The position numbers and the translations under genes are program-made. This document shows, piece after piece, positions 6,108-55,806 of a DNA stretch of 55,806 nucleotides. The notes under the pieces are model-generated. The model was not told where the DNA came from, made no database searches, and worked only from the letters and a program-made list of their open reading frames with translations. Numbering within the stretch: the stretch's first letter is position 1; every line of letters starts with the position of its first letter. Origin of the DNA: a virus (taxonomy: Duplodnaviria; Caudoviricetes). The stretch lies in IMG/VR virus record IMGVR_UViG_3300037780_000011, positions 1-55,806 of that record; one strand, given 5' to 3'.

Positions 6108-6452
6108 ATGCGTTACCTGTCTCTTGCGGTGATATTGGCCTCTATGCCCGCGTATGGGCAGGATATGCCGGTTGAGTGGCCTGCTGACGAGTGGAGCTTG
6201 GATCAGATCAACGAAGACCACTATCAAGTAACTTTCTATAATTCTGAACCACCATCCAGTGCAGTTTTCCCTAGATCACTCAATATGGAAGACATGGAAG
6301 TTGATTTGAATCTTGAATGGACTTCCGGCCCAGAAATTCTGTATGCCTACCCGCCAGTAGGTTGGATCGCCGACCCACCTTTCATTGTTGTTGACGACGG
6401 CTCTATTGGTTTTATTGACATCATACGTTACGAAGAATGGCAAGGAATGTAA
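6108..6452 (+). CDS. Acidic secreted protein of unknown function
   Basis: Signal-peptide-like N-terminus MRYLSLAVILASMPAYG; RBS AAAGGA. Confidence 0.65.
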   Translation: MRYLSLAVILASMPAYGQDMPVEWPADEWSLDQINEDHYQVTFYNSEPPSSAVFPRSLNMEDMEVDLNLEWTSGPEILYAYPPVGWIADPPFIVVDDGSIGFIDIIRYEEWQGM

Positions 6453-6454
6453 GC

Positions 6455-7573
6455 ATGACACCGGAACAGCAGACAGCACTAGACCTTCAAGAGCAAGGAT
6501 ACACCCGTGCGCAGATCGCGTCTCAAATGGGGATTTCCGAACATGCCGTGAAGCGCCGGTTGGCGGGTGCGCGGAAGTGGCTGGACGGCGACAAGGAGAT
6601 CACAGGAACAGCATCATCTCTTGGCGTGACAGACCCAAGGTCGCTGCGCCTCTACTGGGATAAGAACCACGAATTGCCAGACGGTCGCGTTGTAACTGCC
6701 CTTATCAACAATACGGATACGGAGGAGCAGAAGCAAACACTTGTTGATGTCCTACGCGAAACCCTGACGAACATCCCGAAATACGAACCTGTCCACGTTC
6801 CTCGGACCGAGGACAACCGCCTGACAGTATACCCACTAGTTGACGCCCATTTTGGGATGCGAGCATGGGGCAAAGAAACAGGAGGACCTGATTACGACCT
6901 AGCGCACGCAGAAAGCGACATCAAGATGGCGTTTTCCCGCTTGTGGTCCGATATGCAGGTGACTGACGACGCCCTATTGATCCTTGGCGGTGACACGCTC
7001 CACACGGACGACAACGAAGGACACACGCAGTCACGGTCGCATGTCGTTGATACGGACGGTCGTCTCTACAAGGTCACAGAGGTAGCTATTCGTTCAATCT
7101 GCTGGATCATTGATGGCCTGTTGCAGCGTCACTCAAAGGTCACTGTGCGCGTCCTGCGTGGAAACCATGACCCACACGCCCACATCGCATTGCACTTTGC
7201 TTTGTCAGCGCGTTACGGCGACATTGTTGTTCCGGCAGAGCGTGACATCTACTGGTATCGGCATGGCGTAAGCTTGATCGCTGCCCACCACGGAGACAAG
7301 GGTAACGCGAAAGACCTGTGCATGGTTGTATCTGATACATGCCCTGAGTGGTCAGCAACGCGAGACAGGCACGTTTTCACGGGGCACATCCACCATGACA
7401 GTATCAAGGACTTTCCGGGTGTGAAGTGGTGGTCACTAAAGGCTTTCTGCCCGCCTGATGAATACGGCTCCCGGTTTGGAGGCAAGCGAGCCTTGCAAGG
7501 CATTATCTTTGATGCAAAGCGAGGGTTCAAGACACAGGAAGTAGAGGGGGTTGTTCGGGATGCAACCCCCTGA
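6455..7573 (+). CDS. HTH-fused calcineurin-like metallophosphoesterase
   Basis: N-terminal HTH (RAQIASQMGISEHAVKRRL); DAHFG, GGDTLH, GNHD, HHGD and GHIHH motifs. Confidence 0.85.
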   Translation: MTPEQQTALDLQEQGYTRAQIASQMGISEHAVKRRLAGARKWLDGDKEITGTASSLGVTDPRSLRLYWDKNHELPDGRVVTALINNTDTEEQKQTLVDVLRETLTNIPKYEPVHVPRTEDNRLTVYPLVDAHFGMRAWGKETGGPDYDLAHAESDIKMAFSRLWSDMQVTDDALLILGGDTLHTDDNEGHTQSRSHVVDTDGRLYKVTEVAIRSICWIIDGLLQRHSKVTVRVLRGNHDPHAHIALHFALSARYGDIVVPAERDIYWYRHGVSLIAAHHGDKGNAKDLCMVVSDTCPEWSATRDRHVFTGHIHHDSIKDFPGVKWWSLKAFCPPDEYGSRFGGKRALQGIIFDAKRGFKTQEVEGVVRDATP

Positions 7574-9160: not shown

Positions 9161-9688
9161 ATGGGTAAACGCAGCAGTTTTGAGCGTAGGGCGAACGACT
9201 ACTACCCAACACCGAAGGAGGCCGTCCTTCCGCTTCTACCGCACCTTCCGCCTAACTCTACCTTCGTGGAGCCTTGCGCTGGAGATGGTCGTCTGGTTCG
9301 TCACTTGGAAGAAGAAGGACACAAGTGCCATTACTCGTGTGACATTGAACCTCATGACGTGCGTATCTTCAAAAGGGACGCCTTGGAAATCCCTCACGTT
9401 GCCGCTGATTTCGTTATCACAAATCCGCCGTTCACGCGCTCGATCCTGCACAGCCTTATTGACCATTTCGCACCTATGGCACCGACGTTTTTCCTGATTG
9501 ACGCTAACTGGATGTTCACGAAGCAAGCTGGACCTTACTTGGAACGCTGCAAGAAAATCATTACCATCGGGCGCGTGAAATGGATTGAGGGAACGAACCA
9601 GGCCGGAAAGGATGATTCCTGCTGGTATCTTTTCGGAAGCGAACCCTGCGTTACAGAATTTTACCCTAGAGTTCCCGCAAAGCGATAG
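9161..9688 (+). CDS. Small phage DNA amino-methyltransferase (N6-adenine type)
   Basis: DYYPTP, SAM-binding FVEPCAGDG and catalytic ITNPPF motifs; AAGGAG RBS. Confidence 0.85.
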   Translation: MGKRSSFERRANDYYPTPKEAVLPLLPHLPPNSTFVEPCAGDGRLVRHLEEEGHKCHYSCDIEPHDVRIFKRDALEIPHVAADFVITNPPFTRSILHSLIDHFAPMAPTFFLIDANWMFTKQAGPYLERCKKIITIGRVKWIEGTNQAGKDDSCWYLFGSEPCVTEFYPRVPAKR

Positions 9689-12248: not shown

Positions 12249-14028
12249 GATCCGCCTCCTTGTTATATGCGATGACCCTGTAGAACTTCGTGTTAGGGTC
12301 TTTCTGGTATGTCACGGTCTTCGGCATGTCCTGCATGTTTTGCGTTGCAAACACAAGACTCTCCTTGTCGCGTAAGGCGCGCTCGTTCGTCGGGCGCTTC
12401 ATCACCCAAGTCGAGAAAGACCTGTATGGTGTCGTCCAGTCGATACGCCACGTTTCGTTGCCGGACCTTGAAATGTTGTCCGTAACCTTCCAATTCAGAA
12501 CCTCGTCAGTTTGCACATTGGTAGGGTCTTTCTTTAACGCCTTGAAATCCATACGCAATTTTTCATTCGGGTCAACGATCTCCCCACGGCAGTCATGGCA
12601 ATATCGAGCAGCTATGTCGTTGTCGGCACCGCAATGCGGGCACTCCTTGCAGGTCCATCTTCCAGAACACTGGACATATTGACCGTCAGGCTGACGTGAC
12701 AAACCTTGGCAGCGCCGACCGAAATGGGCAGGCATGAATCCATGATCCGTCTGGATACGCTCGCCATCCAGGTCCACGAAATAGCCGTTCTCGTCAATCT
12801 CAAACCCGTCTTCATTCTGACGCGCCTTGAACTCGTTGACAGTTCCACAGGATTCGCATGTCGCGTTGATCGTGATGACCTCACCACCAACAGGACCGGC
12901 GCGAACCTCCGGGCTGAAGATGTCTCCGTCCGGGCAATGACGGTCAATGTTCTCTGCGTAGTCGAGGATCAGGCAGTCATCCTTGCCGTCTGACAGGCGC
13001 AGCCCTCGACCGATGATCTGTTGCAACAGGCCGACGCTTTCTGTGGCACGAAGCATAGCAATGACATCGACATGAGGTGCATCGAACCCGGTCGTCAAGA
13101 CAGACACGTTCACAACATACTTGATCTCCTGCGCCTTAAACCTGTCGATGATACGCTTGCGCTCACTGGCCTTTGTTTCACCTGTTACCAGAGCAGACAG
13201 ACCCGGTGGCAGGGACGCCATGCACTCCTTGGCATGTTGAACCGTCGCTGCAAAAATCATCACGCCCCTACGGTCGCGCGACTGCGCCACAATGTCTGCT
13301 ATGATCGCGGATGTCTTCCTCCCATGCCCATGATACGCTTGGTCCACTTCCTCCTTGTCGAACTGTCCACGACTGTTCAGGGCCATGTGCAGGGTATTGT
13401 AGCCAGAGGCGTTCAACCGACCCATGACGGGTGGTGTCAGATAGCCCTGTTCGATCAGCATACGTGCGCCGATCTCGTAGACCAACTTGGTGAAATACGG
13501 CTCCTGCGTCTGGTGTTCAGGAACGGGCGTATCATCTGGTCTCAGCTTGTAGATGTAGCCTTCCCGCATCCTGTATGGCGTTGCTGTCATCCCCACGACA
13601 CGCAGGTTCGGGTTTTTCTCCCTGATGCTGTCAATGATCGTCTTGATGGTAGGAGTGAGACCGTGCGCTTCATCCAAGATGACCATTGCGAAATCGGCAC
13701 CGAACCTTTGAATCTTGTTCTTGACGGTGATCGGAGTGCCGAACACAACAGGATGGCGCAAGGAAATACCGCCCGCAGACGCGGAAAATATGGATGCTGG
13801 ATTCCCGGTAGCGATGAACTTCTCGCGGTTCTGCGTTACCAACTCCGCACTCGGAGCCAAGCACAAGACACGTTTTCCGCTTGCTTCATGGACCTGCCGT
13901 GCGATGTCAGCTACCAGTAGACTTTTTCCCGCCCCGGTTGCCGCTTCGATCAGGCACGGCTCAGTCGAGCGCCGCACCCATGACATGATGGCGTCAACGG
14001 CTTCTTGTTGGTAGGGGCGAAGGATCAT
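12235..14028 (-). CDS. Superfamily 2 DNA helicase (RadD/YejH-like, C-terminal Zn fingers)
   Basis: LRPYQ, ATGAGKS, DEAH, TATP, LTTGFDAP, QIIGRGLR and several CxxC pairs. Confidence 0.93.
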   Translation of the reverse strand: MILRPYQQEAVDAIMSWVRRSTEPCLIEAATGAGKSLLVADIARQVHEASGKRVLCLAPSAELVTQNREKFIATGNPASIFSASAGGISLRHPVVFGTPITVKNKIQRFGADFAMVILDEAHGLTPTIKTIIDSIREKNPNLRVVGMTATPYRMREGYIYKLRPDDTPVPEHQTQEPYFTKLVYEIGARMLIEQGYLTPPVMGRLNASGYNTLHMALNSRGQFDKEEVDQAYHGHGRKTSAIIADIVAQSRDRRGVMIFAATVQHAKECMASLPPGLSALVTGETKASERKRIIDRFKAQEIKYVVNVSVLTTGFDAPHVDVIAMLRATESVGLLQQIIGRGLRLSDGKDDCLILDYAENIDRHCPDGDIFSPEVRAGPVGGEVITINATCESCGTVNEFKARQNEDGFEIDENGYFVDLDGERIQTDHGFMPAHFGRRCQGLSRQPDGQYVQCSGRWTCKECPHCGADNDIAARYCHDCRGEIVDPNEKLRMDFKALKKDPTNVQTDEVLNWKVTDNISRSGNETWRIDWTTPYRSFSTWVMKRPTNERALRDKESLVFATQNMQDMPKTVTYQKDPNTKFYRVIAYNKEADRAPD

Positions 14029-14654
14029 CTGGGTCTTTCACCATGCTCAAAACGGGCGGAGCGGGCTGCCTTTATTGATTCACCGTGAACGCCTTTAAAT
14101 TGTCCGCTGGTGAATGGAATTGGTATATCTGAAGGGCAGTCGCCACTGTTACAAAAAAGCCTATCCTCATCAAGCCAGTATAGATGATCTCCGAAATGAT
14201 AATCTATAAGCCTTACTTTTTCATTATCACCTGCAGGGCACAGTCCATCGCCACGCGTGCAGTCACAAAATTCTCTAGAGCATGGGCACACTTCAAAACC
14301 TCTAATATCCGTTGCCCAATACCCAGTGTGTTCTGGTGTTCCAAATAGAAGGAGGCATGGATGTCCGCTCATCTTAGTTAGCTGCCAGCACTTCTTTACG
14401 TCATTTTCATATGCTGCATAATGTGTGTAACCTGTGGCCTCATAGCATCCACTTATTAGTGGTTTAACCTCGCCAAACATTTTTATCTGTGGAAACCAAA
14501 AGTCTGGAAGATACCACCCTTCGTCACCTAAATCATAACCTTCAGGTTCGTATTCCCATTTAAGCATGAGATTATCAAACATCACAGCATAACGAGCCTC
14601 TAACCGACTGCGGAAACGATAACCCTTATAGGATGTCTCGATTGCTTTTATCAT
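14025..14654 (-). CDS. PD-(D/E)xK-type nuclease-like phage protein
   Basis: YRFRSRLEARYA...WEYEPEGY...YLPDF...EVK motif; lower GC than its neighbours. Confidence 0.7.
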   Translation of the reverse strand: MIKAIETSYKGYRFRSRLEARYAVMFDNLMLKWEYEPEGYDLGDEGWYLPDFWFPQIKMFGEVKPLISGCYEATGYTHYAAYENDVKKCWQLTKMSGHPCLLLFGTPEHTGYWATDIRGFEVCPCSREFCDCTRGDGLCPAGDNEKVRLIDYHFGDHLYWLDEDRLFCNSGDCPSDIPIPFTSGQFKGVHGESIKAARSARFEHGERPR

Positions 14655-21737: not shown

Positions 21738-22004
21738 TCACTTAATCTCCACCACACTATCCACTCGGAACATGCCCCACTTCCCTTTGCTTTCATCGCG
21801 GGGGTCTTCCTCGTTCGGGGACCAGATCGCAATGTAGCCTTCAGGGGTTTTGCGGCCCGTGCCTTTGATGTGGCTAAGGGGTTTGAACAGGCCGTTCTTG
21901 GTGCGCAGGGTGCCATCTTTCTTGACGAAGGATACCGTGGCAAAACGAGTGCCTTTGGCTTTAACCTTTGCACGGACTTCTTGCGGGTCTAGGTAGGTTG
22001 TCAT
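21738..22004 (-). CDS. SH3-like beta-barrel protein
   Basis: FATVSFVKKDGTLRT...WGMFRVDSV pattern; AAGGAG RBS. Confidence 0.65.
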   Translation of the reverse strand: MTTYLDPQEVRAKVKAKGTRFATVSFVKKDGTLRTKNGLFKPLSHIKGTGRKTPEGYIAIWSPNEEDPRDESKGKWGMFRVDSVVEIK

Positions 22005-22192
22005 TGATCATCTCCTTGGTAGGGTGCAACGATGTCGAGTTGCTCTTTTGTGAGGGTGTCCTGAAAGGCCATTTGAAGGTATTTACGAGCGCGGTTGACG
22101 TGGAACTTTTCGCCGGTCCAGTAGTGGATGGCGAGGCACTCGGCAGCATTGTCCAAGTGGTAGGTGGCGGGGTTGTATTTGGGTTCGGTCAT
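22001..22192 (-). CDS. Hypothetical protein
   Basis: GAGGA RBS; ATGA coupling. Confidence 0.55.
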   Translation of the reverse strand: MTEPKYNPATYHLDNAAECLAIHYWTGEKFHVNRARKYLQMAFQDTLTKEQLDIVAPYQGDDQ

Positions 22193-22353
22193 TGGCGGGG
22201 GTTCCTCTTGATCTGATACCCAATCTTTACACCTTGCGGGGTGATTCTGCAAGGGGAATCTTTACTGACGTATTGACACTTTGGATGCAAAATGTCAGGA
22301 TGTGTTTTGAGCGAATACGTAACTGTTTGAAAACACGAAAGTAATTTTAACGC

Positions 22354-22779
22354 ATGTCTGGTAGTGGGATTTTGAAAGCGGCTTACGAGGGGGAAAAAAA
22401 GAAACCTGGTAGACCACCCGGACCTGCAAAAACGACTCGCAGGAATATCCTAGCTGCGCAGAAGATGTTCCAACAGTATGCCGAAGAGGCAATGCTGAAG
22501 ATCGTGGACATCATGCGAGACGATGAAGCGGATCATGCTGTCAGGTTAAAGGCAGCTAATGATTTGCTCAACAGGGCTTACGGGACACCGGTATCGACGC
22601 AGGTGCAGCATAAGATCATTGAGGACGAGCGCGATTCCCCGATTTCTGCTGTGGCCCTCTCATCCGCAGGCACGACAGAACTATTGGCATTAGCCCAGGC
22701 TTTGAGCAAATACGTTGAGGACAAAGAGAATACAATCGACATTACGCCGGAAATGCCGGACGATTATCCTGATAAGTAA
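22354..22779 (+). CDS. terS: Probable terminase small subunit
   Basis: GRPPG...AEEAMLKIVDIMRD...VRLKAANDLLNRAYG and C-terminal IDITPE resemble TerS-type proteins; followed by a repeat cluster. No other TerS candidate precedes terL. Confidence 0.65.
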   Translation: MSGSGILKAAYEGEKKKPGRPPGPAKTTRRNILAAQKMFQQYAEEAMLKIVDIMRDDEADHAVRLKAANDLLNRAYGTPVSTQVQHKIIEDERDSPISAVALSSAGTTELLALAQALSKYVEDKENTIDITPEMPDDYPDK

Positions 22780-22808
22780 TTGATTAGCCTCGATTTATTA
22801 TGTCCCCC

Positions 22809-22960
22809 TGTTTGTCACGTGAGGGGTCTTTACTGTGATTGTCACGTCACCCTAGCTTCGACTGTGATTGTCACGTCGGGGGTATTTACTGTGATTATCA
22901 CGTCGGGGGTTCCCGTGCTGATTATCACGTGGGGGGGTCTGTTTGTCACGTCGGGGGTAT
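22809..22960. repeat. Six degenerate tandem repeats with core TT(G/A)TCACGT, mostly followed by a G-run and T; candidate packaging or terminase-binding sites
   Basis: Copies near 22809, 22833, 22862, 22889, 22918 and 22940; GTGA-N3-TCAC dyad in three copies. Confidence 0.8.
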
Positions 22961-23242
22961 CCAACTACCACACATCCCATACCGTTCCTGATTCGTTCCA
23001 CGCCACGATAGGCGAATCGCCCCAGCGTAGCATGGCGAATCAGGTTCTGGCAAGCACAATTTTGTGTCAAGCGAAATCCTCTCGCCTGGCGTTGCATAGG
23101 CGCAACAATGGTAACGATTTTTTACTATTGTAACAAATCGTTTGGAATCGTCGATTCTCGCCGATTCGGATAAAGACACGAGAGCAAACGGTATCAGCGC
23201 CGATCTGGTGGCGATCTGTTCCTGGCCATCGTTGCTGCCTAC

Positions 23243-23392
23243 TCAGCGCCGATTCAGATCGGCGAGATGCTGTCTGATGGTTTTGATCTGGTATCGGCTG
23301 AGATCGATCATCATCACCAGCTCCTGGTTGAACAACTCACAGATCGGCGATCCTGTTCGCCGATCGATCACAATCCAGCTCGCATCAATCAT
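23243..23392 (-). CDS. 49-aa protein MIDASWIVIDRRTGSPICELFN... in the GATC island
   Basis: Read by hand; AGAGGAGAGA RBS identical to that of the neighbouring gene. Confidence 0.7.
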   Translation of the reverse strand: MIDASWIVIDRRTGSPICELFNQELVMMIDLSRYQIKTIRQHLADLNRR

Positions 23393-23529
23393 CTCAGTCT
23401 CTCCTCTGGTCTGATGGTCTCAGAACAGCCCAGCGCCATCGCTGAGCTGATCACAGATCACCAGAAACGCGAAAACAGCCCAGCGCCGAGGCACCAGGCT
23501 GTTGATCTGTCAGGCTGTCAGAACAGCGA

Positions 23530-24042
23530 TCAGGCTGCCCGCTCCACCAGTTCGGCGATCAGATGCTGCACCATCTCGGCGCTGATCTGGGCATCCCAGC
23601 TGCGATCAGAGCTGACATAGGCGAAACAGCGATCAGCCGAGCAATGCGAAAAATAGGCATCACAGGATCGGCTGAGATGATCACAGATCGCTGATGACAG
23701 CTCGGCGATGCCAAGCTCCTCGGCGCTGATCTCGATCTCGATCTCGCCGATCATATAGGAATCGAGGAGAATCGATCCTGATTTCGGCGATGCATCGTAA
23801 ATATGAGATGGCACCATCTCAGCCCAGGAAATCACGTCCTCGGCGAGCTGATCGAAATCAACAGAGCTGTGATCGATTCCCAGTTCGGCGAGCTGTTCGG
23901 CGAGTCGGCGATCATGATCGCTGCACCAGCTCTCGCCGAGAATATGAGCATAGTTGCCACCAGAATCCTGATGCTCCTCCTCATATTCAACGCGATCAGC
24001 GATCAAGTTGTTGATCTGTTCGATCTGGTTATCTGTCAGCAT
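23530..24042 (-). CDS. Highly acidic protein (35 D/E vs 8 K/R in 170 aa); candidate DNA mimic or anti-defence protein
   Basis: AGAGGAGAGA RBS; composition counted by hand; function is inference. Confidence 0.75.
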   Translation of the reverse strand: MLTDNQIEQINNLIADRVEYEEEHQDSGGNYAHILGESWCSDHDRRLAEQLAELGIDHSSVDFDQLAEDVISWAEMVPSHIYDASPKSGSILLDSYMIGEIEIEISAEELGIAELSSAICDHLSRSCDAYFSHCSADRCFAYVSSDRSWDAQISAEMVQHLIAELVERAA

Positions 24043-24108
24043 GGTTTCTCTCCTCTGGTGCTGATGGTCACATGAAAACAGCCCAGCGATCTGGGCTGTT
24101 CGCTGTGA

Positions 24109-24684
24109 TCACCAGTAGGAGCTTATGGCTTTGAGAGATGGTGACTCGGCGATCATCAGCGCCATCACATCAACGTCAAGTTCCTCGGCGATCCCGAAAT
24201 CAGAGTGGACATACCTAGGCAGCTGATCATCGATCTGATCGGCGACCAGCTCGACTCGATCTCTCAGTTCTCTCAGCATATCCTGAGACCACCGACCAGC
24301 CGATGGACCATCCATCAGCGCGCTGTAAAGCTCGGCGATCAGCTCTCTGGTGCTCTCACTCTCTCTGAGCTTGGCCAGAGCTGTCTCGCCGATCTCGCCG
24401 AGATCATCAGGATCGCCGATCAGAGACCAGTTCACAGCCCAGAGATCGCCATCCTGATACAAGCTGATGCCATCGGCGGTCTCGGCGCTGTTCAACACAT
24501 CCTCCCATGCATCCAAATAGTGCTCATGATCTGGGCCGGTCTCCAAAATCGCCCAATCCTCGGCGCTGATGGTCTCGCCGAACAGCTCTCGCTTGATGGT
24601 CTCGGCGAAAACCTGAGGCACATATTGACCATGATGCGAGTCGACTAGCAGTTCGAATGGGTTTGATTTCGTCAGCATTTCCAT
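24109..24684 (-). CDS. Acidic hypothetical protein
   Basis: AAGGA RBS; DSHHGQYVPQ...GPDHEHYLDAW...LYQDGDLW segment looks like a conserved phage domain. Confidence 0.75.
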   Translation of the reverse strand: MEMLTKSNPFELLVDSHHGQYVPQVFAETIKRELFGETISAEDWAILETGPDHEHYLDAWEDVLNSAETADGISLYQDGDLWAVNWSLIGDPDDLGEIGETALAKLRESESTRELIAELYSALMDGPSAGRWSQDMLRELRDRVELVADQIDDQLPRYVHSDFGIAEELDVDVMALMIAESPSLKAISSYW

Positions 24685-24916
24685 TTCCTTTTCATTAGCG
24701 GATCAATTCCACCATGAGACGGCCCCATGACGGGGCCGTCCTAGCTGGAATCAGCCTAGGCTGACAATGGCCAGCGCCGAAGCCAGAACCGGCGCGATGA
24801 TTGCGAAATCAATCAGAGCTTGAATAAGCATTCTATGTTCCTTCACATGATATAGATGACAAGCGCCGCGGCGAAGATTGCCGCAAGCGCGATGGCGTCA
24901 GTGATTAGGTGGCGGA

Positions 24917-25243
24917 TCATTTGCACTCCCATAATTCGCGCAACGCATCGTCAAGGCCTATCGCGTCATCATAATAGCTTGCGATGTGCGATTCAGACCA
25001 CCAATAACCTTCAACATTTTTTGTTCGCGTGTTGATCCAAATGGTGGGGCCACCATATGCCACCAAGACTCGCGAGCCCAAATACTCGCCCTTGCCACTG
25101 ACGATGTATTCGATATCAAGCGCATCTTGCAAATAATCAAATGCGCTAGCGTATTCCGGTTCATCGCATTCGGTTTTCCAAGACTCGTCGGTTCCGTCAA
25201 TTTGATTGACGATGTATTCGACGTGATTTTTGATATCAGACAT
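24917..25243 (-). CDS. Acidic hypothetical protein (YLGSRVLVAYGGPTIWI family)
   Basis: AAGGA RBS before MSDIKNHV. Confidence 0.7.
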   Translation of the reverse strand: MSDIKNHVEYIVNQIDGTDESWKTECDEPEYASAFDYLQDALDIEYIVSGKGEYLGSRVLVAYGGPTIWINTRTKNVEGYWWSESHIASYYDDAIGLDDALRELWECK

Positions 25244-25649
25244 TGCCTTATCCTTTCCGATACAGTGACACGCCACGGTGCGCCATGATTGCGTCGACGA
25301 TGTCTTTCAACGTAGGTGGTGGTGTTTGGTGTTTCATGGTGTGTGTTCCTGTTGATTTGATGGGCTGTTTGTATCGTGATTCGCATGGGCGGCATAGTGG
25401 CAATTGTGCAACACATCCAGGTTATTTTGCGGGCGGTGTCGATCAGGGGTTGACGGGTCCGTGTTTTGTGAGTTGTCCGAGGTGATTCGGTTGGTGGCCC
25501 GCCTAAGGCCCTCTAAAATTCCCACCCGATTCCGAAGTTGACCTTTACACTATTTTTTTTGCAACAAATCCGATTTTAGTTCTTTACACCCCGCCAACAC
25601 CATGCTAGGGTCACGAGGCGAATAAACCCCGAACCGAAAGGACTACAAC

Positions 25650-25856
25650 ATGATCAACCAGCATCCCGACGCAAATAAGTGGGAATACATCATGCAGAGT
25701 GGAGATAAACACGAATACAACTATCAGGAGCCAGAACCACTTACCTGGAAAGAGATAGAGCAAATTGCCTTCAAAGGTATGCTGATGTTCTACGGACTGG
25801 CTTTCCTTGCTATGGCACCCCTGCTGTTCGTGTTCATCATCAAAAGCGTCTGGTAA
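25650..25856 (+). CDS. Small membrane protein
   Basis: AAAGGA RBS; C-terminal TM helix; first gene of the rightward cluster. Confidence 0.6.
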   Translation: MINQHPDANKWEYIMQSGDKHEYNYQEPEPLTWKEIEQIAFKGMLMFYGLAFLAMAPLLFVFIIKSVW

Positions 25857-25894
25857 TAGGTATAGAATCAACCAAAATAAAAAGGATCAACCCA

Positions 25895-26347
25895 ATGCCA
25901 AAAACCATATTCAAGGAAACCAAGACAGTATGGGTGTTCAGTGACAGCTTGCACGAATACAAGACCCGTGAAGAAGCTGTAACCGCATGGCGAGAAAAGA
26001 TGTCAAGAGAAGCACGGGCTGATCTTTGCTCTGGAAATTGTTTCTGCGCAGAGGAGGCGCGCAAACTGGCGGAAAAGTTGGATGAAATTAAGTCGTCCGA
26101 ACCACATGGACTTGGACAGGTTAGTTATGACGTGTTCCGCGTTAGCGGTAGCAACAAGGAACACAAAAGCCTTGCTAAGGCGGCATTTGAAATAAGGGAA
26201 GAATCAATCAAAAAAAGAATAGATAAGTTTTATCGTCCAACCGGAATCTATGAAATGTATGATTATACCCTTAAAATTGAAATGATGCTTATTTACGAAC
26301 TTGATAAGATCATCGAAGAAACATCCTACACCATCGTAGAAGTGTGA
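25895..26347 (+). CDS. Hypothetical protein
   Basis: AAAGGA RBS. Confidence 0.65.
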   Translation: MPKTIFKETKTVWVFSDSLHEYKTREEAVTAWREKMSREARADLCSGNCFCAEEARKLAEKLDEIKSSEPHGLGQVSYDVFRVSGSNKEHKSLAKAAFEIREESIKKRIDKFYRPTGIYEMYDYTLKIEMMLIYELDKIIEETSYTIVEV

Positions 26348-28032: not shown

Positions 28033-28193
28033 TGACCGACCTTATCAACCCCGCCAACTGGGGCGGCGCACAGTGGGTGCTTTTGTGCCTTGTTACGTTT
28101 GGGCTTGTCAGCAAAAAGGATGAACTACTCATCCAAACACTTGGTGCTGCTCTCATGCTCGCCATCCTCGCATGGGGAGGCTTTTGGGCGTGA
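28032..28193 (+). CDS. 53-aa two-helix membrane protein
   Basis: Read by hand (MTDLINPANWGGAQWVLLC...); coupled to both neighbours. Confidence 0.55.
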   Translation: MTDLINPANWGGAQWVLLCLVTFGLVSKKDELLIQTLGAALMLAILAWGGFWA

Positions 28194-29188
28194 TGCAAAC
28201 CACCTACATCCAACACTGCGGGTCCGACCTTATGGTGGCCAATGCAGCGCGTGTGTCGTTTGATAAGAAGCATGATGAGTTTGACGATGACAAGGACACC
28301 CGCTTGATCCGCTACCTGGCGCGTCATGGACATACCAGTCCCTTCAACCACACGTTCATCACGCTACACGTCAAGGCTCCTGTCTTCGTGGCGCGGCAAA
28401 TGGTAAAGCACCGTTTCATGATTTGGAACGAGGTGTCTAGGCGCTATGTTTCCGAGAGGCCAGAGTTCTATTATCCTGAAGTGTGGAGGATGGCTGCCGA
28501 AGACAAGAAGCAAGGCAGCAGCGAAGTCGCGTTTGACATAGACAAGTCATACCGTGAAAAGTATGGAACCAGACCGGACCAGTCTATCACGAATCGAAAA
28601 CTGACTAACTGGAGGAACGGTGCGAAGAGGAAAGGCATTGAGTTTAACCTTGAATACGATGACATCCCTTGGGTTACTCACTGCCCGATTTTAGGCGTTA
28701 AACTTGACTACGACAGGAAGGGACATGGTAACAATGGCCCGGATTCGCCATCGCTCGACAGAATCAACAATGAGAAAGGATACGTAAAAGGTAACGTCCA
28801 AGTCATATCCAGACTTGCGAACACGATGAAAAATTCTGCTACGCCAGAGCAAATACGGCAATTTTGCTTGAACATGCTTCCGAGATATGGTGTATTCAAC
28901 TCTGGATCAGACACGGTAGAAGATTACTGTGAGGGAGTGGCGGACACTTATGAGCGCCTTATTAAGGAGGGGCTTTGCCCTGAGCAAGCAAGAGGTATCC
29001 TGCCATTGAATCATTACACCCAATGGTATTGGTCTGGAACACTTGGAGCATGGGCAAGCATGTATAACCTTCGTGCAAAACCGGATGCACAGGCTGAAAC
29101 ACGCATGATCGCGGAGCAGGCTGGTTCATTGATTGAGCCGCTGTTTCCGGTAAGTTGGGGTGCTTTGACTGGAGACGCAAAACAATGA
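28193..29188 (+). CDS. thyX: Flavin-dependent thymidylate synthase with an in-frame HNH-type endonuclease-like insertion
   Basis: NAARVSF, HTSPF, VARQMVKHR...NEVSRRY, PEQARGILP and AQAETR motifs; about 120 extra residues at 28535-28906. Confidence 0.92.
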   Translation: MQTTYIQHCGSDLMVANAARVSFDKKHDEFDDDKDTRLIRYLARHGHTSPFNHTFITLHVKAPVFVARQMVKHRFMIWNEVSRRYVSERPEFYYPEVWRMAAEDKKQGSSEVAFDIDKSYREKYGTRPDQSITNRKLTNWRNGAKRKGIEFNLEYDDIPWVTHCPILGVKLDYDRKGHGNNGPDSPSLDRINNEKGYVKGNVQVISRLANTMKNSATPEQIRQFCLNMLPRYGVFNSGSDTVEDYCEGVADTYERLIKEGLCPEQARGILPLNHYTQWYWSGTLGAWASMYNLRAKPDAQAETRMIAEQAGSLIEPLFPVSWGALTGDAKQ

Positions 29189-32108: not shown

Positions 32109-33596
32109 ATGCAACTGACACCTGAGCAAATCCTTGAGCACGGACCGGAGGCCCTACAGAAAGTCAGGGCGGAACTTGCGCGTAGGAGCCTGCTGGAGTT
32201 CACACGGCAGGCGTGGCCTATCTTGGAACCGGGTGTCAAGATGAAAGAAGGATGGGCTATCGAGGCCATCTGCGAACATCTTGAAGCGGTTATACGCGGT
32301 GAGATCAAACGCCTCGTCATCAACATTCCGCCTGGAGCAATGAAGTCGCGGCTGACCCGCGTGATGCTTCCTTTACATCTATGGACGCAGAAGCCGTGGT
32401 CACGGGTTATCGGAGCGTCATACGCACTTAGCCTCAGCGAGCGAGACAACTACTATGCACGGACCATCCTGCAAACCGACTGGTATCAGCAGAACTTCGG
32501 TGTCTCGATCTCGTCAGAACAAGGCGCAAAAGTGAACTTCGACAACTCTCACATGGGTGGTCTACGCGCCATGTCGGTTGGCGGTGCAACGACCGGCTTC
32601 CGTGGCGACCTGTTGATCCTTGATGACGCCCACAACGCTTCTGAAGGTGAATCCGACGCTAAGCGATCAGAAGCCGTCCAATGGTTCCTTGAAACATTCC
32701 AGACCCGTGTGAACGACCTAGACAACAGCCCGATTATAGTTGTGGGACAGCGTATCCACGAGGAGGACGTGTATTCCACGGCCATTGAACTCGGATACGA
32801 ACACCTGAACATCCCGATGGAATGGGAAGAAGAGCAGCGCAAGACCACGAGCATCGGCTGGACGGACCCGCGCACTGAGGAAAACGAGTTGATGTGGCCG
32901 GAACGGTTCAGTGCAGAAGCCGTCGAGAGATTAAAAGCGGCGCTCGGCCCATACGCTGCGTCGGCGCAACTACAACAGCGTCCCGTCCCCCGCAAAGGCG
33001 GACTGATCCAAGTGGACAACATCCGCATTATTGATGAGTTGCCAGATGAGAACTTCATCGCCGTGCGAGCATGGGACTTGGCTGGCAGCGAAGGAAAGGG
33101 GGCATACACGGTCGGCACAAGACTCCTGTGGGGAGAGGCAAGCCAGCAGTTTTATGTCGCGGACATCCAGCGCAAGCAGTTGGGCGGTGGTGGCGTGCGA
33201 GACCTGATTCAGCGTATGGCGGATGAAGACGGGATCACCACGAAAATCGTCATACCGCGCGACCCCGGACAGGCCGGTAAGGCCCAGTCGGAAGACATCG
33301 CAGCGCAGTTGCGTGGATACAGCGTCAAGGTCGAAGCACAGTCCGGGTCGAAGGAGTTGCGCGCGGAGCCTTTTGCCTCGCAGGTCGAGATCGGAAAGGT
33401 CAATGTTCTCAATAGGACATGGACGAAAGCATGGCTGGACGAGTTGCGGTTCTTCCCAAAGGGAAAATACAAGGATCAGGTTGACGCAACGGCTTCTGCC
33501 TTTAACGAACTCGCAGCGATGACACGACGCGGCAGGAAGACACCACAGTTGTCGCTGGTTGGCTCCAAACAAGACAATGTTTTCAAAGTGGCATAA
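32109..33596 (+). CDS. terL: Terminase large subunit
   Basis: INIPPGAMKS (Walker A), LLILDDAH (Walker B), RAWDLA and KDQVDA nuclease acidic residues. Confidence 0.95.
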   Translation: MQLTPEQILEHGPEALQKVRAELARRSLLEFTRQAWPILEPGVKMKEGWAIEAICEHLEAVIRGEIKRLVINIPPGAMKSRLTRVMLPLHLWTQKPWSRVIGASYALSLSERDNYYARTILQTDWYQQNFGVSISSEQGAKVNFDNSHMGGLRAMSVGGATTGFRGDLLILDDAHNASEGESDAKRSEAVQWFLETFQTRVNDLDNSPIIVVGQRIHEEDVYSTAIELGYEHLNIPMEWEEEQRKTTSIGWTDPRTEENELMWPERFSAEAVERLKAALGPYAASAQLQQRPVPRKGGLIQVDNIRIIDELPDENFIAVRAWDLAGSEGKGAYTVGTRLLWGEASQQFYVADIQRKQLGGGGVRDLIQRMADEDGITTKIVIPRDPGQAGKAQSEDIAAQLRGYSVKVEAQSGSKELRAEPFASQVEIGKVNVLNRTWTKAWLDELRFFPKGKYKDQVDATASAFNELAAMTRRGRKTPQLSLVGSKQDNVFKVA

Positions 33597-39805: not shown

Positions 39806-39970
39806 ATGACGAAAAGGTTTCCATGCGATTACGACCGTGATGAGTTGATCGAGTTGGTCAGGTATCATAGCAATGGGCACAGAGAAAAGGCGATTGAACT
39901 GGACAGAACAAAACAAAGATTGATTGAAGTAAGCAAGGAACTATCCGCGCTGAAGCGTAAGAAGTACTAG
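39806..39970 (+). CDS. 54-aa coiled-coil hypothetical protein
   Basis: Read by hand (MTKRFPCDYDRDEL...); AAGGGA RBS. Confidence 0.5.
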   Translation: MTKRFPCDYDRDELIELVRYHSNGHREKAIELDRTKQRLIEVSKELSALKRKKY

Positions 39971-40045: not shown

Positions 40046-41545
40046 ATGCCATACGAGCGACTGCCAGCCCGTCTCCGTCAACTGATCCCGTCAGAACGTG
40101 GTCAGGAAATTTTCCGCAACACCGTGAACTCCCAACTGGACGCAGGGCGCTCTGAAGCCGTTGCTATGGCATCCGCATGGGCTGCGCTTCGTCGTGCGGG
40201 GTTCAACCGGGATAATGCGACGGGCAAGTGGGAGCGCAACTCAACCGAGAAATCCAGTGACACCGGCTTGCGTAACAAAATTGACGAGTGGAACGATAAA
40301 TACGCCGACAAGCACGGCAAAATCACTATGGGTATGCTGCGTGACGTGTATGACCGTGGCGTAGGAGCGTATCGAACAAATCCTTCCAGCGTCAGACCGA
40401 ACGTCAAATCGCCTGAGCAATGGGCTATGGCGCGTGTCAACAGCTTTCTCTCAGCAGCCCGTGGTGCAAAGTCGATCAACCACGACAAGGACATCCACGA
40501 TAAGATCAAGAAATCCTCCCCAACAGCATCATCCGTTCACGTCCCGTCCGCCGATTGGGAGCGGACCCGGAAAGAGGATACGTTTAGACCGCCTGCATCT
40601 TCCCGCAACAACGCCCGCCGCGTTCTCCGCTGGAAGGAAAAGTATGGTGATGAAGTAAAAGGCATGACTCAGGTAGGGTGGACCCGCGCCAATCAACTTG
40701 CATCCGGTGAAAACCTGTCACGCGATACAGTTGCCCGCATGTCGGCCTTCGCACGTCACCGCAAGAACGCTGAAGTAGATCCCAAGTTCAAGGACACACC
40801 GTGGAAGGATCGTGGCCACGTAGCGTGGCTGGGATGGGGCGGGACTAGCGGCGTGAACTGGGCCAACTCTGTCATGGACCGCCTGGAAAAACGTCAGATT
40901 GACGACGACAGTTTCACAGAACCAGCAGAGGCCGCTGTCCGCTCGATGGACCTTGGGCTTGAAGGTGAAATCCACGTCCATGATCGCAATGGGCAGGCCG
41001 TCTACATGCCTGGAGAAGACCACGAAGAATACCTTGAACGAATCAGGGAACTTGCAGGAATCAAAGACCACGATGAGCCTGTCAAGGAGGGGTTGCTTGA
41101 AAGGACGATTTCCGCGATAATTGCGACCATTATGCAACACACGCCTGTGTCCAAATCTGTTGAGCAAGCGAAAGTCGTCAAGATGGACGACGAGCAGCGC
41201 ATTGTCTGGGGTTGGGCTTCTGTCGTGACCGAAGACGGCAAGGCTGTAGTCGATACACAAGGCGATGTAATCTCGCCCGAAGAAATGGAGAAGATGGCAA
41301 ACTCGTTCATGCTGGATGTGCGAAAGGCAAAAGCCATGCACGAAGGCGAGCAGATCGGCGAAGTCATCCATTCTATGCCCCTAACCAACGAATTGATGAA
41401 CAGGTTTGGAATCTACTCCGACCGAGAGGGATGGATTATTGCCATGAAAGTTCATGACGATGACACTTGGTCCGAAATGAAGAAGGGCCGTTTCACCGGC
41501 TTTTCCATTGGCGGCAAGGCTGGCTCGCGGGAGGAAATCGAATGA
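40046..41545 (+). CDS. Multidomain prohead protease (C-terminal XkdF-like domain; ChaB-like N-terminus)
   Basis: EQRIVWGWASV...DTQGD...AMHEG...FTGFSIGG; first gene of the head operon. Confidence 0.8.
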   Translation: MPYERLPARLRQLIPSERGQEIFRNTVNSQLDAGRSEAVAMASAWAALRRAGFNRDNATGKWERNSTEKSSDTGLRNKIDEWNDKYADKHGKITMGMLRDVYDRGVGAYRTNPSSVRPNVKSPEQWAMARVNSFLSAARGAKSINHDKDIHDKIKKSSPTASSVHVPSADWERTRKEDTFRPPASSRNNARRVLRWKEKYGDEVKGMTQVGWTRANQLASGENLSRDTVARMSAFARHRKNAEVDPKFKDTPWKDRGHVAWLGWGGTSGVNWANSVMDRLEKRQIDDDSFTEPAEAAVRSMDLGLEGEIHVHDRNGQAVYMPGEDHEEYLERIRELAGIKDHDEPVKEGLLERTISAIIATIMQHTPVSKSVEQAKVVKMDDEQRIVWGWASVVTEDGKAVVDTQGDVISPEEMEKMANSFMLDVRKAKAMHEGEQIGEVIHSMPLTNELMNRFGIYSDREGWIIAMKVHDDDTWSEMKKGRFTGFSIGGKAGSREEIE

Positions 41546-55546: not shown

Positions 55547-55806
55547 TGGGTGCTATTGCGTCAATTATCGGTGCCGCTGTATCAACTCTAGTCGCTGGTC
55601 CAATTGGCGCTATTTCAATCTTCGGGGCTAGTATTACACTAGGTCCGTTTGCATCCTTCCTAGTCCGCGCCGCTATCGGGCTTGCGCTAACTGCTCTATC
55701 ACCAAAGCCAAAAACTCCGAACATCGGAGACCCAAGGACACGGGGCTACAACGTAAACCAGCGTGGTTCCGCTCTCGACCATCAGATCATCTACGGACGT
55801 GCGCGC
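55546..55806 (+). CDS. 5' part of the J-like tail tip gene (continues at position 128)
   Basis: TAATG coupling at 55546; in frame with ORF 143..2725 across the junction. Confidence 0.85.
   Translation, partial: MGAIASIIGAAVSTLVAGPIGAISIFGASITLGPFASFLVRAAIGLALTALSPKPKTPNIGDPRTRGYNVNQRGSALDHQIIYGRAR
55680..55806. repeat. 127-nt copy of bases 1-127
   Basis: Exact identity. Confidence 0.95.

Follow-up and report, generated by a model that had tools for sequence, protein, structure and literature searches.

The window, by which the whole analysed stretch of 55,806 nt of Caudoviricetes DNA is meant, harbours a sharply bounded island in which GATC and a small set of other palindromic words are packed into a cassette of three genes and its spacers, independently of codon usage and of protein sequence, and among relatives this density is conserved whereas the individual sites turn over. 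As far as can be judged at the nucleotide level, these properties support selection for a dense array of GATC and other palindromes on double-stranded DNA. A possible explanation, which is put forward tentatively, is that these words form a cis-acting array of sites which is read through methylation and superimposed on a cassette of early genes.

Density, bounds and vocabulary of the GATC island

Exact counting gave 49 GATC sites at positions 23202 to 24531 (no strand assigned), as an earlier count by hand had put it (about 49 in about 1,330 nt), which amounts to 36.8 sites per kb and is about eightfold above the 4.39 per kb of the rest of the genome. In this interval 5.8 sites are expected from the background (Poisson P = 1.6e-28), and all other segments of 1,330 nt contain 5.8 GATC on average (sd 2.3) with a maximum of 13. 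The other open reading frames of the genome reach at most 8.2 GATC per kb, and a second gene with the same dialect was not found among them. On the left, dense GATC begins at 23202 after a complete lack of sites in 22700 to 23201; on the right, the final site of the run at 24528 is followed by those at 24701, 24915 and 25034, and dialect words other than GATC continue to about 24610. Judged by word counts, the restricted vocabulary, which is closed under reverse complementation and likewise assigned to no strand, extends in full from 23142 to 24700. The non-coding parts of the island take part in the enrichment, with 6 GATC in 304 nt versus 1.33 expected (P = 2.5e-3).

Mononucleotide shuffles of the island yield 5.1 +- 2.2 GATC and dinucleotide-preserving shuffles 24.9 +- 3.9 (maximum 39 in 1000 runs) versus 49 observed, so that dinucleotide composition accounts for half of the excess. 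With the counts of the trinucleotides GAT and ATC taken as given, GATC reaches, by our arithmetic, only about 1.15 times the expected number. GATC and AGCT exceed the expectation from dinucleotide content about 2-fold or more, while CATG, TGCA and CGCG are not enriched.

Besides GATC, the 1,500 nt from 23181 to 24680 contain TCGSCGA 22 times (versus 6 copies across the remaining 54 kb), SAGCTS 15 times (with a single copy elsewhere, at 52914) and ATCGAT five times, and palindromic words, namely GATC, AGCT/SAGCTS, TCGA and TCGSCGA, dominate the island. AGCT occurs 19 times and TCTC 23 times, where 1.5 and 3.7 occurrences, respectively, are expected from the rest of the genome. Of all 256 tetramers 206 are present, compared to 246.7 +- 5.0 (minimum 226) in other segments, and the number of distinct hexamers is 717 versus 1068 +- 28. 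The flanks of GATC are biased as well: YGATCR accounts for 22 of the 49 island sites, including 8 TGATCA or TGATCG and 13 CGATCA, versus 40 of 237 elsewhere, and RGATCY for none of the 49 versus 3 of 237 elsewhere; the hexamer GCGATC occurs 17 times. The sharp bounds, the presence of GATC in coding and intergenic DNA alike and the restricted vocabulary in which AGCT, TCTC and CTCGGCG recur, all described in the sequence-only reading, are borne out by these counts. Tandem or long repeats were considered as the origin of the vocabulary and rejected, as a search with TRF and a repeat finder retrieved only short arrays (GATCTC x3.2) and imperfect 14-27-nt pairs, and no duplication accounts for the dialect.

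Tetramer counts of the island correlate with those of their reverse complements at 0.78, compared to 0.18 +- 0.15 (maximum 0.46) elsewhere, and within the two larger genes, A and B, the correlation of 0.72 drops to 0.25 +- 0.09 once they are recoded. As the vocabulary is closed under reverse complementation and both strands behave alike, we infer that selection acts on double-stranded DNA.

Genes of the cassette, coding constraints and conservation

Three minus-strand open reading frames with GGAG-type ribosome sites make up the cassette, as had been proposed from the letters alone: gene B (24109 to 24684; 191 aa, pI 4.10, 13 GATC), gene A (23530 to 24042; 170 aa, pI 4.19), with GATC at 20 of 25 synonymously possible places, and the variable third gene C (23243 to 23392; 49 aa, 8 GATC). 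The N-terminal domain of B (approximately residues 3-91) is the widespread phage domain phrog_21544, with a clade-specific C-terminal part, and the A family is conserved and found in metagenomes alone. The start of gene C and the sequence downstream appear to align only with one locus (L025), and other relatives possess different sequence there. With 35 (A) and 41 (B) aspartate and glutamate versus 8 and 12 lysine and arginine residues, A and B resemble the acidic DNA-mimic anti-restriction proteins of the Ocr/ArdA type in being small and strongly acidic. Neither protein matched Pfam or NCBIfam models or a PHROG family with a named function; Foldseek against the PDB gave nothing at E <= 0.001, the best VIA-align Z scores of 5.0 (A) and 5.9 (B) were each to an unrelated chain, the ESM Atlas gave no usable match, and for the N-terminal domain of B the BFVD contained uncharacterised phage proteins only.

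Between B and A, a conserved minus-strand hairpin, AACAGCCCAG-loop-CTGGGCTGTT (24077 to 24100), is followed by a T-run, and two more AACAGCCCAG hairpin modules are located on the same strand between A and C (23424 to 23503). Five 21-nt direct repeats, TGWTTRTCACGTSGGGGGT-like and assigned to no strand (22809 to 22960), separate the island from a terS-like open reading frame and are outside the dialect (0 GATC). Searches for known RNAs and tRNAs found none, and a promoter and terminator scan gave no signal above shuffles.

When the proteins are kept fixed and codons are redrawn from genome usage, A and B together contain 11.6 +- 2.8 GATC, and when their own codons are permuted 23.4 +- 2.1, versus 33 observed (0 of 1000 runs in each case). 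The excess thus persists under codon- and amino-acid-preserving shuffles, the check that the sequence-only reading had proposed. Permutation of their own codons costs A and B 10 of 33 GATC and 11 of 18 TCGSCGA and raises the number of distinct hexamers from 672 to 805 +- 13; in A and B together, TCGSCGA occurs 18 times versus 2.2 +- 1.4 and SAGCTS 12 times versus 4.0 +- 1.8. The dinucleotides TA, AC/GT, AA/TT and GG/CC are depleted, and this depletion, together with the excess of TCGSCGA and SAGCTS, indicates that GATC alone leaves the rest of the dialect unexplained. GATC is made at 41 of the 53 synonymously possible places in A, B and C (77%) versus 146 of 699 in 32 other genes, and the amino acid sequences themselves offer more such places (9.4-20 per 100 codons versus 6.4 elsewhere). 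Aspartate is encoded by GAT in 93% of the cases in island genes versus 40% elsewhere, and Nc is 43.0 versus 55.4 for the genome set.

All eight metagenome loci with a gene A homologue (seven of them distinct, since L026 and L027 are identical) show 19-38 GATC per kb in A at 71-86% amino acid identity, with dS of 0.3-1.2 and dN/dS of 0.14-0.41. In the nine-row alignment, only 3 of 31 GATC columns are common to all rows and 5 are found in one row alone, which shows that the density of GATC is kept and the positions are not; wobble bases within GATC are conserved at 82% versus 75%, a slight gain from pairs that are not independent. The proposal of a positively selected dense GATC array, one of the two options raised in the sequence-only reading, is supported in so far as the array exceeds both codon nulls and is kept in relatives through gains and losses of sites.

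In every relative the limits of the dialect match those of genes, and in L026, where a different gene with ordinary composition takes the place of B, the dialect is present in A only; as judged from these comparisons, the dialect tracks the cassette genes and not genomic position. The neighbours of the cassette vary among relatives, which are represented in each of two sequencing runs by several hundred short contigs that differ from one another (503 and 312). That the dialect is a trait of the B protein family was considered and rejected, as 21 + 80 IMG/VR loci with homologues of the B N-terminal domain contain no island, their GATC maxima of 18 and 25 per kb occurring in ordinary GC-rich sequence. 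Close relatives of the whole phage were not found in the phage collection by megablast, and the best TerL match has 40% identity. Relatives of gene A were found neither in IMG/VR nor, in a scan for the A family, in the genome contigs collection, prophages included; IMG/VR likewise gave no relatives of the terS-like open reading frame.

A possible methylation-read site array and known systems

If the cassette is a methylation-read site array, nucleotide-level selection would hold the conserved genes for the acidic proteins B and A plus a variable third gene to a short palindromic vocabulary, with GATC first, followed by AGCT/SAGCTS, TCGA and TCGSCGA. The cassette would then double as a cis-acting site array read by a GATC-recognising, methylation-sensitive activity, for which a host Dam-type methyltransferase together with a SeqA-like binder, or the putative NPPF methyltransferase of the phage, are candidates. 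The reading activity may control the cassette, which it could leave open on the genome that enters the cell and close or mark once replication has taken place. The reader protein, the methylation and the regulatory outcome are the parts which we infer. Alternatively, the array may label a zone next to the terS-like gene where packaging starts, comparable to the GATC hexamers of P1 pac.

N6-adenine methyltransferases are recognized by the SAM-binding motif I and the catalytic (D/N/S)PP(Y/F) motif IV. Considered here as context only, the plus-strand open reading frame at 9161 to 9688 (175 aa) contains FxGxG-like and NPPF motifs (EPCAGDG and ITNPPF), thus both signature motifs, and matches phrog_799, annotated as 'DNA methyltransferase'. 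The adenine methyltransferase that the sequence-only reading had placed at 9161 is consistent with these amino-methyltransferase-like motifs and the PHROG match, while Pfam, NCBIfam and the PDB provided no match, so that these searches gave no relative whose specificity is established, and the product is a possible N6-adenine methyltransferase. Dam-family models of Pfam and NCBIfam found no match among the open reading frames of the genome.

SeqA-like binding is an obvious comparison, since the high local density of the island (36.8 GATC per kb) resembles that of oriC (about 45 per kb), which is subject to sequestration by SeqA. The island sites differ by the lack of same-face helical phasing: pooled over seven islands, Fourier values are 0.06 at 10.5 bp and 0.11 at both 10 and 11 bp, compared to 0.21 at 3 bp, and GATC pairs at distances of 10, 22, 31 and 32 bp number 0, 2, 1 and 0, respectively, so that same-face binding of the SeqA type is not favoured. 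BclI and ClaI are sensitive to Dam methylation. Outside the island the genome is purged of their sites, TGATCA and ATCGAT, for which there would be no need if GATC in the phage DNA were reliably methylated; this counts against the methylation reading. In cyanobacteria, HIP1 (GCGATCGC) is a GATC-centred palindrome that is far over-represented and linked to methylation; HIP1 is a single octamer of genome-wide occurrence. The island shares with it the over-representation of GATC-centred palindromic words, but its enrichment is confined to one cassette.

The packaging site of P1 consists of a cluster of TGATC(A/G)-type hexamers inside coding sequence beside the small terminase function, where seven sites in about 160 bp allow the Dam methylation state to gate the start of packaging. 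Of the 49 island sites, 22 are YGATCR, the class to which the P1 hexamer belongs, though only 8 are TGATCA or TGATCG, and a terS-like open reading frame on the plus strand (22354 to 22779), convergent with the cassette, is located about 460 nt away; this is a weak call (phrog_2538, E = 1.3e-4, as the terS family match; phrog_15261, E = 4.6e-8). In L023, L026 and L028, too, the cassette faces a relative of it. In contrast to pac, the island contains 49 sites in 1.3 kb over whole genes, includes other palindromes and tracks gene boundaries, and no Dam-family gene was found in the phage genome. There is no reason for a pac site to track gene boundaries, and the array of L026 is separated from the terS-like open reading frame by other genes over 1.4 kb; both observations count against the packaging version. 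The assembly closes to a circle through an overlap of 127 nt.

Intragenic GATC clusters of E. coli and Salmonella, defined by at least 4 GATC at a mean spacing below 18 bp, are situated within coding sequence and shared by related genomes, and the sections of Riva et al. (2004; PMC493266) drawn on here propose that they work via the hemi- or unmethylated state or SeqA. The island is similar in being intragenic and conserved, and gene A contains a cluster of this kind at 23728, 23734, 23740 and 23749 (spacings 6, 6 and 9). Those clusters, as far as these sections describe them, comprise a few sites over some tens of bp, whereas the island has 49, gene-wide, with a vocabulary closed under reverse complementation and an amino acid bias.

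Early-injected or leading regions with anti-defence genes share with the island small acidic proteins, a variable region and a composition under special selection, and Pectobacterium phage CBB encodes a homologue of the B N-terminal domain within its 22.5-kb terminal repeat, an indirect hint that the island may be first-ejected DNA as the sequence-only reading suggested. Gene 0.3 of T7, the pre-early region of T5, Murciavirus phages and plasmid leading regions provide examples. Such regions show target depletion or codon adaptation; in the island, restriction-type palindromes are enriched.

Competing explanations and significance

That the cassette, expressed before defences are neutralised or working in many hosts, has been stripped of most dinucleotide steps from which restriction, BREX or PAM-type motifs are assembled, with GATC, AGCT and TCGA as the residue, is unlikely. 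It would agree with the very strong purging of the genome outside the island, where GTAC occurs once versus 137 expected, 19 of 64 palindromic hexamers are absent and RGATCY is as rare as given above; GRCGYC-, CMGCKG- and RCATGY-type pairs are likewise among the purged words. The island itself is nearly devoid of 9 of 16 palindromic tetramers (AATT, CCGG, GTAC and TTAA 0, CTAG and TATA 1, ACGT and GGCC 2, ATAT 5), it lacks RGATCY, and 58 of the 72 hexamers purged elsewhere are absent from it too. Furthermore, the depletion is strand-symmetric, as expected for double-stranded DNA targets, dinucleotide content by itself provides 24.9 of the 49 GATC, and early-injected regions determine restriction sensitivity in Murciavirus phages, according to the sections of PMC12455610 drawn on here; motif depletion has also been examined in plasmid leading regions (bioRxiv 10.1101/2025.04.03.647016, in part). 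This idea, raised in the sequence-only reading as DNA purged until only safe words remain, is not supported: with 22 palindromic hexamers versus 5.5 +- 2.8 (maximum 15) in other segments, the island is richer in palindromes than any other 1.5-kb stretch, the opposite of what a safe-word leader would show, and it concentrates words that are near-absent elsewhere. GAGCT/AGCTC occurs 17 times in the island versus 8 times in the other 54 kb (63.5 expected there), CAGCTC/GAGCTG 13 times versus once and CAGCTG twice versus never; ATCGAT is absent elsewhere (14.5 expected), and TGATCA occurs four times in the island and four times elsewhere (24.5 expected). Relatives show the same contrast, with 8.55 GAGCT/AGCTC per kb in islands versus 0.78 in flanks, and depletion does not predict that GATC and AGCT exceed their dinucleotide expectation while the other permitted palindromes CATG, TGCA and CGCG are not enriched.

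A wider conception, doubtful at present, is that of a dual-use element: the palindrome array (GATC, SAGCTS, TCGA, TCGSCGA and ATCGAT) in an otherwise purged genome may itself serve in counter-defence or timing, either by soaking up or sensing host methyltransferases, restriction enzymes or a SeqA-like binder, or by providing the zone designated for cleavage or marking, and may have co-evolved with the encoded acidic proteins and shaped their amino acid composition.

Selection for folding of the cassette as mRNA or single-stranded DNA, with self-complementary words as the cheapest route while coding, and with resistance to RNases or to RNA-targeting defences, or shielding from Rho, as the benefit, is quite unlikely. 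Island segments of 150 nt do fold more stably than their dinucleotide shuffles (mean z -1.63 in 19 segments versus +0.12 +- 0.98 in 24 controls), intergenic hairpins are conserved, and a vocabulary closed under reverse complementation and bounded by the cassette would be consistent with such selection. Sense and antisense strands, however, fold alike (z -1.27 and -1.67 in a second run; Wilcoxon P = 0.22), which gives no sign of selection at the transcript level. RNAalifold on seven sequences found no covariation (term +1.57) and compensatory change in 7 of 166 pairs, the invariant paired columns being mostly in the intergenic hairpins, so that a conserved RNA structure was rejected. Folding also leaves the choice of GATC and AGCT over CATG, TGCA and GCGC unexplained.

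Without any function of the words themselves, the dialect could be a mutational or historical signature, left by hairpin-templated strand-switch mutation in a hot region or by the foreign origin of a mobile cassette, an account with a low probability. The loop of the B-A hairpin, which contains GATC, is inverted among seven rows (ATCG in five, CGAT in two), the footprint expected from intrastrand template switching, and the variable neighbours, the many short variant contigs and the modest position-specific conservation of GATC point in the same direction. On the other hand, the density remains steady up to a dS of about 1.2, the amino acid sequences themselves are richer in GATC-compatible places, the bounds match gene ends in every relative, and a mutational process would need to be confined to these genes; a source genome carrying such a dialect is not known.

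It is very unlikely that the island is a programmed cleavage zone, in which SAGCTS, ATCGAT and perhaps GATC are targets of a nuclease used or tolerated by the phage to initiate packaging series, form ends or shut off early genes. The pattern of a signal present here and purged elsewhere, most distinct for SAGCTS, is conserved in relatives, the island adjoins the terS-like open reading frame and repeats, and several nucleases are among the products of the phage (an HNH/EndoVII-like insert in thyX, an N-terminal resolvase-like open reading frame at 14025 to 14654 and a YqaJ exonuclease). Yet cuts would hit conserved coding sequence, no nuclease with such a specificity was identified, and GAGCT/AGCTC has escaped purging in the flank of L026, with 4 copies in 3.1 kb.

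Translational tuning, by which very fast early expression would be gained from a smaller set of codons or from codon reuse and GATC would be a by-product of preferred GAT, ATC, GAG and CTG, is highly improbable in spite of the lowered Nc and of reports that anti-restriction genes of plasmid leading regions show high codon adaptation (bioRxiv 10.1101/2025.04.03.647016, in part), as permutation of the own codons destroys GATC and TCGSCGA and adds hexamers, the non-coding spacers are enriched too, translation does not predict a preferred codon set closed under reverse complementation, and the mixed preferred endings (GAT, CAT and TAT, but AAC, TTC and ATC) fit no simple tRNA rule. Long codon-aligned antisense reading frames (24205 to 24648 in the window, 238 to 747 in L023 and 543 to 1064 in L028) were judged a by-product and rejected as overlapping genes, because all they require is that the codons TTA, CTA and TCA be rare in the sense frame (0, 1 and 5 in island genes) and because their lengths are not conserved among relatives.

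A cassette-bound dialect of this kind was not found described in the full text of PMC open-access articles and bioRxiv. If its words are functional, whether read through methylation or otherwise, the island would represent a second code at the DNA level laid over protein genes, which fixes 77% of the possible GATC places and biases amino acid usage. It stands against the other 54 kb, which are among the most thorough restriction-site purges one can find, and scans of phages for motif depletion can miss such local islands of opposite sign. The island offers a clean, recodable test bed for methylation- or palindrome-read cis elements in phage early regions.

Word composition of the cassette DNA

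The island at 23202-24531 contains exactly 49 GATC sites, where the sequence-only reading had estimated about 49, at a density of 36.8 per kb versus 4.39 per kb elsewhere in the genome (Poisson P = 1.6e-28), and all other 1,330-nt windows hold 5.8 ± 2.3 sites with a maximum of 13. As had also been proposed, its bounds are sharp, with the run of sites starting at 23202, preceded by a GATC-free stretch of 500 nt or more, and ending at 24528, its vocabulary is restricted (206 of the 256 tetramers versus 246.7 ± 5.0 in other windows; 717 distinct hexamers versus 1068 ± 28), and it carries three ORFs together with spacers that are themselves enriched (6 GATC in 304 nt versus 1.33 expected). Palindromes are the leading words of this dialect. 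AGCT occurs 19 times versus 1.5 expected from the rest of the genome and TCGA 12 times versus 4.1 expected, CAGCTC/GAGCTG 13 times versus once elsewhere, GATCGAT/ATCGATC seven times versus none elsewhere, and the 7-mer TCGSCGA 22 times in 23142-24700 versus six elsewhere. Depleted dinucleotide steps are TA (0.29), GT/AC, AA/TT and GG/CC; GA/TC and AT are enriched. Counts of tetramers and their reverse complements correlate at 0.78, versus 0.18 ± 0.15 (maximum 0.46) elsewhere, and recoding with genome codons lowers this correlation to 0.25 ± 0.09.

The GATC excess of genes A and B survives codon-preserving shuffles with the proteins fixed, the check suggested along with the original proposal: the 33 sites observed compare with 11.6 ± 2.8 under genome codon usage and 23.4 ± 2.1 when the genes' own codons are permuted (0/1000 in both cases). 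TCGSCGA is likewise in excess (18 observed; 2.2 ± 1.4 and 7.3 ± 1.8, respectively), and distinct hexamers are fewer than in either null (672; 894 ± 13 and 805 ± 13). SAGCTS (12 observed) exceeds the value under genome usage (4.0 ± 1.8) but matches what the genes' own codons yield (10.7 ± 1.9). In A, B and C, 41 of 53 synonymously possible GATC places are realised, versus 146 of 699 in 32 other genes, and Asp is encoded by GAT in 93% of cases versus 40%; per 100 codons, the cassette proteins leave room for GATC at 9.4-20 places versus 6.4 elsewhere. Neither codon usage nor protein sequence is the source of the GATC excess. The claim of a selected dense array is supported, as far as sequence can show, as nucleotide-level, strand-symmetric selection, beyond the codon nulls, for a GATC-centred palindromic word set tied to one cassette.

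Genes and relatives of the cassette

The minus-strand genes C (23243-23392, 49 aa), A (23530-24042, 170 aa) and B (24109-24684, 191 aa), with coordinates from ORF calls made within this analysis, are separated by conserved hairpin modules. A and B are real genes encoding acidic proteins (pI 4.19 and 4.10) whose alignments look like those of globular proteins. Each has 68 database matches, the window's own protein included, with 61-91% identity among relatives of A and 43-87% among full-length relatives of B, six further matches of B being short N-domain proteins. The AlphaFold models of A and B are confident (pLDDT 82 and 91) and matched no solved fold, and a BFVD search with the N-domain of B retrieved only uncharacterised phage proteins. 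Almost all matches lie on metagenome contigs of 1-3 kb, probably because the population of relatives in aquaculture- and algae-labelled metagenomes seems to be very microdiverse. Across 22000-26000, two runs (X2 and X3) gave 503 and 312 short contigs of 85-99% likeness spanning the whole 4 kb.

A small hydrophobic ORF (24751-24846, 31 aa) lies just upstream of B on the same strand. After it come a second one, read by eye, with roughly 25 aa and its end near 24920, and an acidic ORF (24917-25276, 119 aa, pI 4.37); none of them is written in the dialect. Long codon-aligned antisense ORFs across B or A (24205-24648, plus strand, in the window; 238-747 and 543-1064, both minus strand, in the metagenome loci L023 and L028) probably just follow from how seldom the sense codons TTA, CTA and TCA are used.

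Eight metagenome loci, seven of them distinct, carry an A homologue (dS 0.3-1.2, dN/dS 0.14-0.41), and in all eight the A gene holds 19-38 GATC per kb. In the nine-row alignment, three of 31 GATC columns are common to all rows and five are private to one, which argues that density is maintained through turnover and not by position. Wobble bases are only modestly better conserved inside GATC (82%) and TCGSCGA (86%) than the 75-76% found otherwise, the pairs being non-independent. At the cassette edges of every locus GATC, TCGSCGA and SAGCTS go up and down together; L026 has a different gene in place of B, and there the dialect is confined to A. None of 101 IMG/VR loci with distant homologues of the B N-domain is rich in GATC. 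One such homologue, CBB_43 (KU574722.1, 17042-17374), falls within the terminal repeat (22.5 kb, annotated as a 22,456-bp 'redundant repeat') of Pectobacterium phage CBB; in related jumbo phages, homologues are found 12-19 kb into the record.

The phage genome and its purged words

An exact 127-nt terminal direct repeat (1-127 = 55680-55806) indicates a circular or circularly closed assembly of the whole 55,806-base genome, so that the physical ends are not readable from it. This metagenome-derived phage encodes a siphovirus-type tail module, TerL (32109-33596), a Mu-type portal, primase-helicase, YqaJ exonuclease, RNR and PhoH; megablast against the phage collection found no close relative, and the best TerL match has 40% identity. 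The Thy1 domain of ThyX (28172-29188) lies in two stretches around an HNH/endonuclease VII-like insert (residues about 104-239) that looks like an intein or homing-endonuclease insertion. In ORF 6437-7573, an N-terminal sigma-70 region-4-type HTH (PF08281) is fused to a part that belongs to the PHROG family 'DNA repair exonuclease'. Three domains meet in ORF 40046-41545 (499 aa): ChaB, DUF5824 and an S78 prohead protease of the XkdF type. A group of five 21-nt direct repeats (22809-22960; TGATTGTCACGTCGGGGGT-like; spacings 56, 27, 27 and 21), immediately following the terS-like ORF, could be iterons or putative terS or initiator binding sites; in the equivalent place of L023 and L026, repeated peptide strings in the ORF lists suggest other repeated elements.

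Outside the island, GTAC occurs once (at 39964) versus 137 expected, AGCT 60 times versus 145, GAGCT/AGCTC eight times versus 63.5 and GAATGC three times versus 32; RGATCY makes up 3 of 237 GATC sites, and 19 of the 64 palindromic hexamers never occur. The purged pairs agree with degenerate sites (GACGTC with GGCGCC, CAGCTG with CCGCGG, ACATGT with GCATGC). The extreme purge of restriction-type words outside 23142-24700, where AGATCC/GGATCT is found twice versus 31 times expected, implies a very rich restriction-modification repertoire in the host clade.

Candidate readings of the island

Blanket avoidance, a rather unlikely alternative, draws on the share of this purge that reaches the island (RGATCY in 0 of 49 sites, no GTAC, 58 of 72 purged hexamers absent). 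The idea that only safe words are left there does not hold, since the island is instead richer in palindromes than any other stretch of the genome (22 palindromic hexamers versus 5.5 ± 2.8, maximum 15) and holds words purged elsewhere (GAGCT/AGCTC 17, ATCGAT 5, TGATCA 4, CAGCTG 2). Relatives carry 8.55 GAGCT/AGCTC per kb in islands versus 0.78 in flanks, the L026 flank being the one unpurged exception. No other part of the finding is as poorly explained as this paradox of purge outside and enrichment inside.

Selection for nucleic-acid structure is an unlikely explanation: both island strands do fold better than shuffles, but equally so (z -1.27 sense, -1.67 antisense), and RNAalifold found no covariation. 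Mutational or foreign origin appears just as unlikely. The conserved B-A hairpin (24077-24100) has the loop ATCG in five of seven rows and CGAT in two, an inversion concerning the L023 and L029 equivalents that is a footprint of strand-switch mutation, and both loop forms keep GATC. A programmed cleavage zone is improbable, and translational tuning, given the codon nulls, very improbable.

The favoured reading, though a tentative one, is that the cassette DNA serves in cis as an array of sites for a methylation-sensitive activity that recognises GATC. It is weakened by the companion words, which an array leaves unexplained, by the GATC sites, which show no 10.5-bp phasing, by TGATCA and ATCGAT, which are purged from the rest of the genome, and by the genome itself, in which no Dam-family gene was found, only an NPPF-motif ORF at 9161. 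A purely GATC-based version is further weakened, as dinucleotide-preserving shuffles of the island already reach 24.9 ± 3.9 sites and GATC lies only slightly above expectation given the GAT and ATC counts. A bioRxiv preprint on the T5 pre-early region (10.1101/866236) reportedly presents a related concept. A GATC-dense, cassette-bound phage dialect was not found described in PMC open-access and bioRxiv full text, supplementary motif tables aside; related concepts appear in PMC12455610 and bioRxiv 10.1101/2025.04.03.647016. Of the two closest precedents, one is the set of GATC clusters within E. coli genes (PMC493266). The other is the P1 pac site.
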